DNA of 64,000 nucleotides from a bacterium (GCA_037132275.1 JBAXPK010000007.1:518-64517); one strand, 5' to 3'. Positions 4,156-64,000 are shown, counted from the first letter of the stretch. Made by a program: numbers and translations. Notes: generated from the sequence alone by a model not told the origin.

Positions 4156-5280
4156 ATGGACAAAACAACACAAGAGAGTTCGGACTTTCAGGTTGACTGG
4201 TTGACAAACCGATTGAGCCAATGGGTCTGGAAGTCGCCGGGGCGTGCTGTTCGGCTGGGGAACCATGAGAGCCGGTGGTTTGCCGATGAATTACAGTCCT
4301 GCCCGGTTCAGAAGCCGGTGTTCATTGCGGGGTTGGCAAGGTCGGGAACCACGATCCTGCTGGAGTTCATGGCGATGCTAGACGGGGTGGCCACCCATCG
4401 ATACCGTGATTTCCCGCTGGTGCATATGCCTATCTGGTGGAACGAGTTCCTGAACCTCACTCCCCGGAAACGCATGGAGCCCGTCGAAAGGAGCCATCGC
4501 GACGGCATTGTGATCACGCCCGAAAGCCCGGAGGCGATGGAAGAGCCCCTCTGGATGAGTTTCTTTCCGCTGGCCCACGACTCGGCGGTCAGCCAGGTGC
4601 TGAATGCGGCCACGGTGAACCCGGGATTTGAAGCGTTTTTCCAAGACCACTTGCGCAAGATCCTGTTCGTGCGCCAGGGTCGCCGCTATGTGTCGAAGGG
4701 CAATTACAACGTCACGCGGCTCGAGTATCTCCTGCGTCTGTTTCCGGACGCACGGTTTGTGGTGCCGGTGCGGGAACCTGCGGGGCACGTGGCTTCACTC
4801 ATCAAGCAGCACCGCATCTTCGGCGAAAATCTTCGAGGCAATCCGCGTGCGCTTGAGTATCTGCGCCGCGTTGGGCACTTCGAATTCGGGCCGGACAGGC
4901 GGGCGATCAATGTGGGGGACACGGTCCTGGCCCGGGAGATTGAAGCGTTGTGGGCCGCCGGCGAAGAGGTGCGTGGTTGGGCCCGATACTGGGCCTCCAT
5001 CCATGGTTTCCTTGCGGGGCGCATGGAATCGGATCCGCTCTTTCGGAAGGCTGTACGACTGGTTCGGTTTGAGGAACTGTGCGAGCGGCCGGCCGCTGAA
5101 CTCAGGAAGATCGCGGAGCATGGTGAGTTTACAGATGCCGCGCGAGGCGCGGACTCTTTCGCGGAACGAATTCGGTTCCCTCGGTACTACGCGCCTTCGT
5201 TCAGTGAAGCCGACGGGATGGCCATTAAGGACGAAACGGCGTCCGTGTTCATGCGACTCATGCGTCTCCAACAACAATGA
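4156..5280 (+). CDS. PAPS-dependent sulfotransferase family protein
   Basis: 5'-phosphosulfate-binding P-loop FIAGLARSGTTILLEFM. A downstream VPVREPAGHVASL segment resembles the 3'-phosphate-binding motif of sulfotransferase-domain proteins. Confidence 0.65.
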   Translation: MDKTTQESSDFQVDWLTNRLSQWVWKSPGRAVRLGNHESRWFADELQSCPVQKPVFIAGLARSGTTILLEFMAMLDGVATHRYRDFPLVHMPIWWNEFLNLTPRKRMEPVERSHRDGIVITPESPEAMEEPLWMSFFPLAHDSAVSQVLNAATVNPGFEAFFQDHLRKILFVRQGRRYVSKGNYNVTRLEYLLRLFPDARFVVPVREPAGHVASLIKQHRIFGENLRGNPRALEYLRRVGHFEFGPDRRAINVGDTVLAREIEALWAAGEEVRGWARYWASIHGFLAGRMESDPLFRKAVRLVRFEELCERPAAELRKIAEHGEFTDAARGADSFAERIRFPRYYAPSFSEADGMAIKDETASVFMRLMRLQQQ

Positions 5281-62421: not shown

Positions 62422-62450
62422 TTGACGCGGAGCGGGTCAATTGCCAGTAT
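62422..62450 (+). promoter_or_regulatory. Sigma70-like promoter TTGACG-N17-CAGTAT
   Basis: TTGACG at 62422-62427, a 17-nt spacer, CAGTAT at 62445-62450. ATG codons at 62453 and 62459 follow immediately. Confidence 0.4.
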
Positions 62451-62452
62451 CC

Positions 62453-63199
62453 ATGTCTATGACAGAACCGCATGAAATCCTGGATATCCAGCAGCAGTTG
62501 GTGAACAGCGACGTGTCGCCGATGCGGAAATATCTCGCTTTGGTGATCGGGCGGGGGAGTTGGCTGACCTTGATGAAGTATGAACTCATCATCCTGCTCT
62601 GTTCCCTGACGCCGGGGGCCTTGGGTCTGGTGATGCGCAAAGCGCTCTATCCGCTGTTGCTCAAGAAGTGCGGACGGAATGTCGTCTTTGGCGCCAATAT
62701 CGTGCTGCGTCACCCGAAAAAGATCGTCATCGGCGATAACGTGGTGGTCGACGATAACTGCCTGCTCGATGCCAAGGGCGATTCCAATGCCGGCATTACC
62801 ATTGGTTCAGGTGTGTTTATCGGACGGAACACAATTCTCCACTGCAAGAACGGCGACATCATCATCGGCGACGATGTGAATATTGGTTTTAACTGCGATA
62901 TTGCCTCCTCCCACCGGGTGGAAATCGGGCGCAAGGTTCTGATTGCCGCCTACAGCTATATCGTTGGCGGCGGGCATGACTTCTCCAAATCGGATGCCTC
63001 GGTCATGGATCAGAAACGTATTGCCCGCGGGATTACCATTGGCTCCGAGGCTTGGATCGGGGCGGGTGTTATTGTTCAGGACGGCTGCACCATCGGGGAA
63101 GGAACCATCGTCGGCGCCGGCGCCGTGGTGGCGGATAATCTTCCCGCCAAAGTCGTTGCCGTCGGGCTGCCCGCCAGAGTTCTCCGCGCCCGTGATTAA
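62453..63199 (+). CDS. Hexapeptide-repeat (left-handed beta-helix) acyl/acetyltransferase with N-terminal membrane segment
   Basis: Repeats VVFGANIVL, VIGDNVVVDDNCLL, ITIGSGVFIGRNTIL, IIIGDDVNIGFNCDI, ITIGSEAWIGAGVIV, CTIGEGTIVGAGAVV. The start may be 62459. Confidence 0.75.
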   Translation: MSMTEPHEILDIQQQLVNSDVSPMRKYLALVIGRGSWLTLMKYELIILLCSLTPGALGLVMRKALYPLLLKKCGRNVVFGANIVLRHPKKIVIGDNVVVDDNCLLDAKGDSNAGITIGSGVFIGRNTILHCKNGDIIIGDDVNIGFNCDIASSHRVEIGRKVLIAAYSYIVGGGHDFSKSDASVMDQKRIARGITIGSEAWIGAGVIVQDGCTIGEGTIVGAGAVVADNLPAKVVAVGLPARVLRARD

Positions 63200-63999
63200 C
63201 CGCGTCGATAAAGCGTGACAATAGTCTCGGCGACTTGGAGCGCCGAGTGTGTTGCGGTATCGACCTGATGAGGAAGCGAGGCGTACAGGCCCTTGCGTTT
63301 TGCCAGCAAATCCAAAATGCGCTGCATGCGGTTCTGTTCTTCCAACAGGGGGCGGTTGCGATCCTTCGCGGTACGCTCAAAGATGACCTCGGGTGTGGCG
63401 GTCAGGCACACGACCAAGCCGGTCCGGCTATAGTCGCGAATGTTGTCAGGATTGAGTACCACTCCACCGCCACAGGCGATGACCAGGCCTTTCTCTTGCG
63501 AAAGTTCCTGAGCCAAAGCCCGCTCCAGCGTCCGGAAATGCGGTTCGCCCTCCTCGGCAAAAATACGGGAGATGGGCTTGCCGGCCCGCTCCTCAAGAAT
63601 CGTGTCCATGTCGACAAATTTCATCCCGAGTCGACTGGCCAGTAACTTTCCCACCGTGCTTTTGCCGGAGCCCATGAATCCCATGAGAACGATGTTGGGC
63701 GTGCAGTCCCCTGCCGCCTTGTGCGGCAGGAACGGACGATTGGCAGCAAACGTGTGTGCGTGCTGCCAATCACGTTCACCCGCGACACAAGGTCGCGAGG
63801 GTCTATCGAAAATGAGCCGACCGGCGCAGAACGTTTTTTCGGCACGGCCGGTGAGCCGCCGGCCGTCGAAGGGCGTGTTGCGTGATTTGGAGGCGAATTC
63901 CTCGGCCCGGACGATCCACTCGCTGTCGAGATCCAGCAGGATCAGGTCGGCGGGAGCACCAGGGGCGAGTGTCGGGGCGGGCCGTCCCAGAACGCTCGC
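63196..63999 (-). CDS. aroK: Shikimate kinase domain in the same open frame as an upstream dihydroorotase-like C-terminus (5'-partial at the window edge)
   Basis: AroK: NIVLMGFMGSGKSTVGKLLA...VIACGGGVV. The same frame is open to base 63999 with no stop, and reads ADLILLDLDSEWIVRAEEFASKSRNTPFDGRRLTGRAEKTFCAGRLIF, a cyclic-amidohydrolase/dihydroorotase C-terminal pattern. Confidence 0.6.
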   Translation of the reverse strand, partial: ASVLGRPAPTLAPGAPADLILLDLDSEWIVRAEEFASKSRNTPFDGRRLTGRAEKTFCAGRLIFDRPSRPCVAGERDWQHAHTFAANRPFLPHKAAGDCTPNIVLMGFMGSGKSTVGKLLASRLGMKFVDMDTILEERAGKPISRIFAEEGEPHFRTLERALAQELSQEKGLVIACGGGVVLNPDNIRDYSRTGLVVCLTATPEVIFERTAKDRNRPLLEEQNRMQRILDLLAKRKGLYASLPHQVDTATHSALQVAETIVTLYRRG

Positions 64000-64000
64000 C

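Follow-up and report, generated by a model that had tools for sequence, protein, structure and literature searches.

Does a reading frame that begins as a dihydroorotase and ends as a shikimate kinase make one protein or two? The question arises at the far end of a 64,000-nucleotide (nt) stretch of DNA (GCA_037132275.1 JBAXPK010000007.1:518-64517), referred to here in its full length as the window, where the minus strand holds a single stop-free frame of 267 sense codons (63999 to 63199) closed by a TAA at 63198–63196. A first-pass annotation had claimed that this frame runs uninterrupted from the C-terminus of a dihydroorotase through a shikimate kinase (AroK), and both the open frame and the assignment of its upstream part held up, with residues 1–65 of the translated fragment matching the ends of dihydroorotase profiles. 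Dihydroorotase (PyrC) carries out the third step of de novo pyrimidine synthesis, and shikimate kinase the fifth step of the shikimate pathway. We consider it highly probable, from sequence comparison and a structure model, that a single gene specifies one bifunctional protein of 627 residues, translated from the pyrC start, in which a class I dihydroorotase is followed by a disordered linker of about 33 residues and a shikimate kinase.

The window holds only the 3′ part of this pyrC::aroK open reading frame (ORF), 267 of its 627 codons and the stop (63196–64000, minus strand). As its open end and its identity to two database sequences indicate, the frame continues beyond the window end. The full protein, retrieved by a homologue search with a full-length relative followed by local BLAST, is NCBI MEI6563114.1 (P0153), 627 amino acids (aa) long, encoded on a 73-kb contig and recorded as "MAG: dihydroorotase [bacterium]" (MAG, metagenome-assembled genome); its residues 361–627 are 100% identical to the 267 residues of the window fragment. 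The protein also appears, with its start called further upstream, as the cluster mate P0239, encoded on ENA contig ERZ27300037:k141_281072 (locus L134), and it is present in JGI too. On L134, the ORF could be traced to a GTG start at 5257, which corresponds to 65079 in window coordinates. Upstream of the fusion gene and divergent from it lies rpmH (L34, MKMTYHPSKKKRARK...; L134 5039–5260, window ~65076–65297, just past the window end). Because the antisense strand of rpmH is open, gene-calling programs place the N-terminus of the fusion protein too far upstream, giving 659 aa in P0239, 668 aa for the longest ORF and 690–734 aa in relatives. The 627-aa form is more plausible than the 659-aa call because the latter would overlap the divergent rpmH.

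The portion of the dihydroorotase domain inside the window comprises its last 65 residues (63805–63999, minus strand; P0153 361–425), which form the final β-strands of the adjacent β-sandwich according to NCBIfam profiles, PDB alignment and AlphaFold. Fragment residues 1–65 match positions 364–428 of 430 in NF006558 (E = 3.5e-17), and a second dihydroorotase profile, NF006845, is matched at positions 371–426 of 428, so that the NCBIfam matches finish within 2 positions of the profile ends. The full protein scores 376.4 bits against TIGR00857 (pyrC_multi; cut-off 279) over residues 24–423, which places it within the class I dihydroorotase family. It stays below the strict PRK09357 equivalog cut-offs (538–786 bits), which is no surprise in a distant phylum. 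Residues 1–428 align end to end with class I dihydroorotases of known structure, among them those of Bacillus anthracis (4YIW/3MPG, E ~4e-104 to 6e-104, 42% identity), and the Staphylococcus aureus, Aquifex and Thermus enzymes are also matched in the PDB alignment. The modeled N-terminal domain superposes on 4YIW_A with a template modeling (TM) score of 0.96 and a root-mean-square deviation of 1.8 Å over 425 columns in Foldseek, reproducing both the amidohydrolase TIM barrel and the adjacent β-sandwich domain, whose C-terminal strands are placed by AlphaFold at residues 379–389, 408–418 and 421–425. The metal-binding and catalytic residues all lie outside the window and were read in P0153: H61, H63, D152/D153 (AFTDDG), H180, H230/H233 and D307-H308 (D307-HAPH) align with the B. 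anthracis motifs and show no variation across 42 fused proteins. Following what is established for the family, we take the HxH motif, the bridging Asp of AFTDDG and two further His to be metal-binding and the Asp of DHAPH to be catalytic. The first-pass annotation had proposed a "PyrC-like"::AroK fusion; the fusion is supported, and the N-terminal part can be refined from PyrC-like to what is, by sequence and model, a bona fide class I dihydroorotase of predicted activity.

The kinase domain is complete within the window, with 166 residues at 63199–63696 (minus strand; P0153 462–627). Fragment residues 102–266 match the Pfam family PF01202 (SKI) at 158 bits, against a gathering score of 22.1, over profile positions 1–156 of 159, and NF010553 at positions 3–167 of 173. 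Solved shikimate kinases in the PDB are matched with E = 2e-32 (4Y0A) and E = 1.3e-26 (1KAG, Escherichia coli AroK). The Walker A P-loop GFMGSGKS (63658–63681; G107, G110, G112 and K113 invariant), the DxD motif D130/D132, R156, the GGG loop G177–G179 and R216, all in fragment numbering, align to 1KAG and are invariant in fused and split relatives and in the 42 fused proteins; R156 and R216 correspond to R516 and R576 of the full protein. The DxD motif, the Arg58 equivalent, the GGG loop and the lid Arg presumably bind shikimate and ATP, going by the roles assigned in the E. coli and Mycobacterium tuberculosis enzymes. On this basis the C-terminal part is a shikimate kinase whose activity is predicted from its conserved residues.

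Where such a kinase could begin as a protein of its own is difficult to see. Residue 6 of E. coli AroK aligns to N102 of the fragment, and a normal kinase would therefore start about 5 residues upstream of it. A codon scan found no ATG, GTG or TTG across the 20 codons upstream of N102, and none within the linker. The first in-frame ATG (63682–63684) encodes M106 of the fragment and M466 of the full protein, and a mechanical ORF list accordingly puts the start of this frame at 63684, giving a product that begins MGFMGSGKS. In the AlphaFold model, β-strand 1 of the kinase is NIVLMG (462–467) and the P-loop helix spans 473–484; because its ATG sits inside β-strand 1, M466 could hardly serve to begin a folded kinase. 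The earlier observation that NIVLMG begins before the first ATG, with no alternative start codon ahead of it, was correct, as was the conclusion that a stand-alone aroK start is hard to place. Lacking its own start codon just ahead of β-strand 1, the kinase here is a domain, not a separate gene.

The two domains are joined by an interdomain linker of 36 codons (63697–63804, minus strand; P0153 426–461), delimited by translation and predicted to be disordered. An AlphaFold2 model built on an alignment of 42 fused sequences (mean predicted local distance difference test score, pLDDT, 84) contains two confident domains with a disordered connection between them, pLDDT falling below 50 at residues 429–458. 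The linker had been put at about 37 aa in the first-pass annotation. It is present, but its length is 36 aa when measured between profile ends (fragment 66–101) and about 30–33 aa by PDB alignment and pLDDT. No solved chain covering both domains was found by Foldseek, the best query TM-score being 0.65.

The arrangement is shared by a large set of relatives. A search for orthologous fusions recovered 43 protein clusters at 90% identity (566–715 aa), 15 GTDB species representatives, 7 loci from a JGI metagenome scan and one ENA scaffold (L003). The 43 clusters are 62–93% identical and come from many samples and assemblers. In the GTDB scan, which uses one genome per species, 22 related loci were found: 15 have one clean ORF over both domains, 6 have separate genes, and in the remaining one (L021) a fused layout is interrupted by a 1-nt frame break. 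Where the record names a lineage, these loci are labeled Kiritimatiellia or "Verrucomicrobiota," and several sample names suggest freshwater lakes. Among the GTDB loci lacking an aroK start, 15 of 16 are in frame. The spacing from the conserved SKS motif of the dihydroorotase to NIVL comes in 12 lengths between 33 and 65 aa and is in frame and stop-free in every case. Since the same arrangement recurs in so many diverged relatives, it is not a chance one.

Relatives with two separate genes do exist, but their aroK starts are ordinary: all 10 split genes have an ATG or GTG 3–6 codons before NIVL. By comparison, 23 of 24 fused genes lack a start codon in the last 10 codons before NIVL, and none but the window gene, with a weak example, has a Shine-Dalgarno (SD)-like motif. 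The stand-alone aroK genes have pyrC directly upstream and yidC-yidD-rnpA (with rpmH where called) on the divergent strand, and their junctions are tight. At the L001 junction, where the end of pyrC and the start of aroK read ...TWQKN-TGA-ATG-HTPNIVLMGF, the two genes share one frame, so that one substitution in the stop codon would give a fusion. The genes overlap at ATGA in L023 and L024 and at GTGA in L025, and in L015 and L091 the stop is followed by eight codons and then an ATG, again in the same frame. Between fused genes, the ratio of nonsynonymous to synonymous substitution rates (dN/dS) is 0.03–0.14 for the AroK domain and 0.06–0.21 for the PyrC domain. A kinase that lacks its own start, is under strong purifying selection and stays in frame with pyrC would therefore be translated as part of the fusion.

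These comparisons suggest how the fusion probably formed. The ancestral state would have been a neighboring, translationally coupled pyrC and aroK, a pair conserved in a Kiritimatiellia-type lineage and divergent from rpmH-rnpA-yidD-yidC. Loss of the pyrC stop codon and of the aroK start codon would have left a single merged gene, and the kinase would now depend wholly on ribosomes initiating at the pyrC start codon. Fusion of operon neighbors by loss of a stop codon is a known process. Both activities were probably kept, with the domains acting independently on a flexible tether, and the gain may be at most a fixed 1:1 co-expression. Substrate channeling is unlikely because the two pathways share no intermediate.

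Some observations weigh against a single translated fusion. The AroK part falls below the strict NCBIfam equivalog cut-off (PRK13947; 183.2 bits for the fragment and 180.6 bits for the full protein versus 204), although the match is close and full length (3–167 of 173). The N-terminal 360 residues lie outside the window and come from database records judged to be of the same genome by sequence identity. The linker RNA of the window is unusually structured and a weak SD-like stretch (AAGG/GGGGA) lies upstream of the kinase, which makes some independent initiation possible. Locus L021 (GTDB representative JBIJCW010000004.1, a Kiritimatiellia MAG) has the fused layout and no aroK start, but its pyrC and aroK frames are offset by 1 nt: at ~4195–4257 the 14-nt unit ccccatcaaccatt is repeated three times in tandem, the last copy being one T short, and the called pyrC product (P0164, 480 aa) continues out of frame. 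For the break in L021, an assembly error, a pseudogene-like variant and a genuine frame switch are all conceivable. The second assembly contig, L134, agrees with the window at every one of the 8,805 overlapping nt, the linker among them, yet the agreeing assemblies may have been built from the same reads, so that an assembler quirk is ruled out while the agreement falls short of a fully independent resequencing.

If the kinase were translated separately, from a non-canonical codon near the linker end (such as ACG at −2, ATC at +1 or CTG at −11) or starting at the internal ATG of M466 or M469, the stop-free linker would be incidental. The weak SD-like stretch, aaggcggcagggga, does lie 4–18 nt before ACG-CCC-AAC, and the linker RNA has three stable hairpins that could be left over from intergenic structure. 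The linker, however, is without ATG, GTG or TTG, and initiation at ACG or ATC is weak, running in E. coli at well under 1% of the efficiency of ATG. A start at M466 or M469 would remove β-strand 1 of the P-loop fold. In the relatives the pattern is the same, with 23 of 24 fused genes also lacking a start and lacking SD-like motifs while every split relative has a start codon, and conservation of frame over 12 spacing lengths would be needless if the kinase were made on its own. We regard separate initiation as improbable. Still less credible, and very improbable in our view, is an artefact in which a missed stop or a 1-nt indel in a MAG contig joined two ordinary genes. The sequence is indeed from a metagenome assembly, and the frame break in the L021 linker repeat indicates that errors or real variants occur in this region; but the second assembly is identical over 8.8 kb, the same fusion protein is present in a third source (JGI), the fusion recurs in 43 clusters, and the missing aroK start codon is beyond any single error.

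A further alternative accepts that the fusion is translated and doubts that it yields two independent enzymes: the linker might be cleaved after translation, or the kinase-like domain might be a regulatory nucleotide-binding module of the dihydroorotase, or of a complex of dihydroorotase and aspartate transcarbamoylase (ATCase). A long, disordered and fast-evolving linker would be open to proteases, the closest structural relatives include the Aquifex dihydroorotase, which works in complex with ATCase, and the pairing of pyrC and aroK is conserved even where the genes are separate. Against a regulatory or cleaved form stand the shikimate-binding and catalytic AroK residues, which are all invariant, and a dN/dS that matches a functioning enzyme. 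The 64-kb window, which is as much of the genome as was covered, shows no second aroK, and in some relatives the linker is only ~1 residue long, with little room for a cleavage site. This alternative is unlikely, if somewhat less so than separate initiation. The reading that best accommodates the evidence on all sides is thus a translated fusion of two working enzymes.

The linkers themselves are varied. Across the fused relatives, they extend ~1 to 33 residues past the natural end of the dihydroorotase and are rich in Ser, Pro, Leu and Gln. Their DNA has a dominant 7-nt period in 15 of 21 fused loci (self-match 0.56–0.85), and most consist of ~3–6 imperfect tandem copies of a heptanucleotide such as ctcaaat, ctcacat, aaccatc, aaccagc, caaccaa or cacggct (examples are L012 at ~4190–4225, L011, L013, L016, L017, L018, L004, L089 and L088). 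No heptamer repeats were found in the split relatives examined. Because 7 cannot be divided evenly by 3, gaining or losing one copy would put the kinase out of frame. Among near-identical loci (L007/L086/L087 and L014/L090), the linker protein sequences are identical within each set. Since the kinase has no start codon of its own and the heptamer is not a multiple of 3, the linker could conceivably act as a frame switch, in which slippage of heptamers turns shikimate kinase synthesis off and on, a contingency-locus-like control of aromatic amino acid synthesis tied to pyrC translation. In L021 the frame is in fact broken, by 1 nt, within a repeat of this kind. We give this idea a low probability.

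The window linker is the longest and least typical of the 42 linkers and is without a heptamer repeat. Its ends resemble those of sister linkers by eye (...RPS compared with ...APS, and ...DCTP-NIVL compared with ...NCSPP-NIVL), and its middle is unique. The RNA over 63690–63815 (minus strand) has a predicted minimum free energy of −58.1 kcal/mol versus −39.9 ± 4.2 kcal/mol for shuffled sequences (z = −4.4), with 0 of 200 shuffles as stable. The three predicted hairpins are cucgcgac/gucgcggg, an 11–12-bp stem gauuggcagca/ugcugccaauc, and cugccgc/gcggcag. An inserted palindromic element and a relic of the intergenic region are both possibilities. As a repeated palindromic element the linker found no support, a blastn search of the window, L134 and all retrieved loci having turned up no further copy; nor did it match a known RNA, with no Rfam hit at E ≤ 1 over 63600–63900.

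How widely the architecture occurs, and how often it arose, are related questions. In a library of 1.84 billion representatives (50% identity), P0139 alone among the best 150 matches (at least 309 bits) covers both domains, and it belongs to the same family; the remaining 149 are nearly all ordinary dihydroorotases of ~430 aa. As far as this library search can see, the fusion would be restricted to one lineage, because no other of the best 150 matches covers the kinase part. Trees were built by neighbor joining with bootstrap from distances computed in numpy, not by maximum likelihood, for PyrC, AroK and a concatenation of the two (541 columns). The fused genes form two groups, A (99% bootstrap) and B (100%), which do not once come out as sisters (0%): A joins one split group (96%), and B lies with the other split groups (96%). 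In the AroK tree the window gene falls in group A. Since A and B are not sisters, at least two events are needed: the genes fused twice, or they fused once and later split again. What speaks against two clean origins is that the linker of L018 in group B begins SEISNLKSH and that of L012 in group A begins SEISNLRSH, with 25 of 36 nt identical by our own count, a likeness that hints at one old fusion then re-splitting, or at recombination. If the same pair did fuse twice independently, a selective benefit of tethering AroK to the dihydroorotase would be implied.

At its 3′ end, the TAA of the fusion ORF (63196–63198) lies within a 4-nt overlap (63196–63199) with the stop codon of a convergent gene for a 252-aa hexapeptide-repeat transferase (62441–63199, plus strand), which leaves no space for a terminator between the two genes. 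Across the 64-kb window, no tRNA or tmRNA genes were found, and no Rfam family reached its gathering score.

The fusion opens no new mechanism and settles no long-standing question; its value lies in annotation and as an example of gene fusion. In the public records for P0153, P0122–P0125 and P0003, NCBI and JGI name full-length fusion proteins only "dihydroorotase," and N-terminally truncated fragments are named "shikimate kinase," so that each name covers just one of the two functions. The first-pass annotation had called the architecture unusual, and so it is, yet it was already in public databases, unremarked under the name dihydroorotase. Automated metabolic reconstruction of these freshwater Kiritimatiellia MAGs could score the shikimate pathway as lacking AroK. 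The gene is also a clean counter-example to "Rosetta-stone" logic, by which fused proteins are assumed to be functionally linked, and its relatives offer a natural series of merging operon neighbors that begins with same-frame genes held apart by a single stop, passes to genes whose start and stop codons overlap, and ends in fusions whose repeat-built linkers grow longer.

Literature searches for a dihydroorotase–shikimate kinase fusion or for pyrC-aroK returned only unrelated papers, with none describing the combination. What appears to be new is the joining of a class I dihydroorotase to a shikimate kinase, an architecture we did not find described, while both enzyme families are textbook knowledge and the proteins were in databases under one function. 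The nearest comparison is with the split pyrC-aroK pairs (L001, L002, L015, L020 and L022–L025), which encode the same enzymes (56–77% identity) in the same order and in the same neighborhood, divergent from rpmH-rnpA-yidD-yidC. These pairs keep a pyrC stop and an aroK ATG or GTG 3–6 codons before NIVL, whereas the window gene has neither and carries a 36-codon linker instead. Class I dihydroorotases of B. anthracis (4YIW/3MPG), S. aureus (3GRI) and Aquifex aeolicus (3D6N) match the fusion domain end to end with the same metal and catalytic motifs, but bacterial enzymes of this class end at about residue 425–428, where the fusion protein continues into the kinase.

Other proteins also carry a shikimate kinase domain within a longer polypeptide, as in AroK-AroB fusions and the pentafunctional AROM protein; AROM chains are among the PDB matches to the AroK part, and NF010556 and NF010627 are among its weaker profile matches. 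The partners in AroK-AroB and AROM are enzymes of the same pathway, whereas the partner here is a pyrimidine-pathway enzyme. Pfam and NCBIfam scans of P0153 found only amidohydrolase/dihydroorotase and SKI/AAA-type domains, with no 3-dehydroquinate synthase or other shikimate-pathway domain beyond SKI, and no carbamoyl-phosphate synthetase (CPSase) or ATCase domain. The last two are the partners of dihydroorotase in CAD, where the fused enzymes serve a single pathway, in contrast to the window gene, in which the fusion joins enzymes of two unrelated ones.

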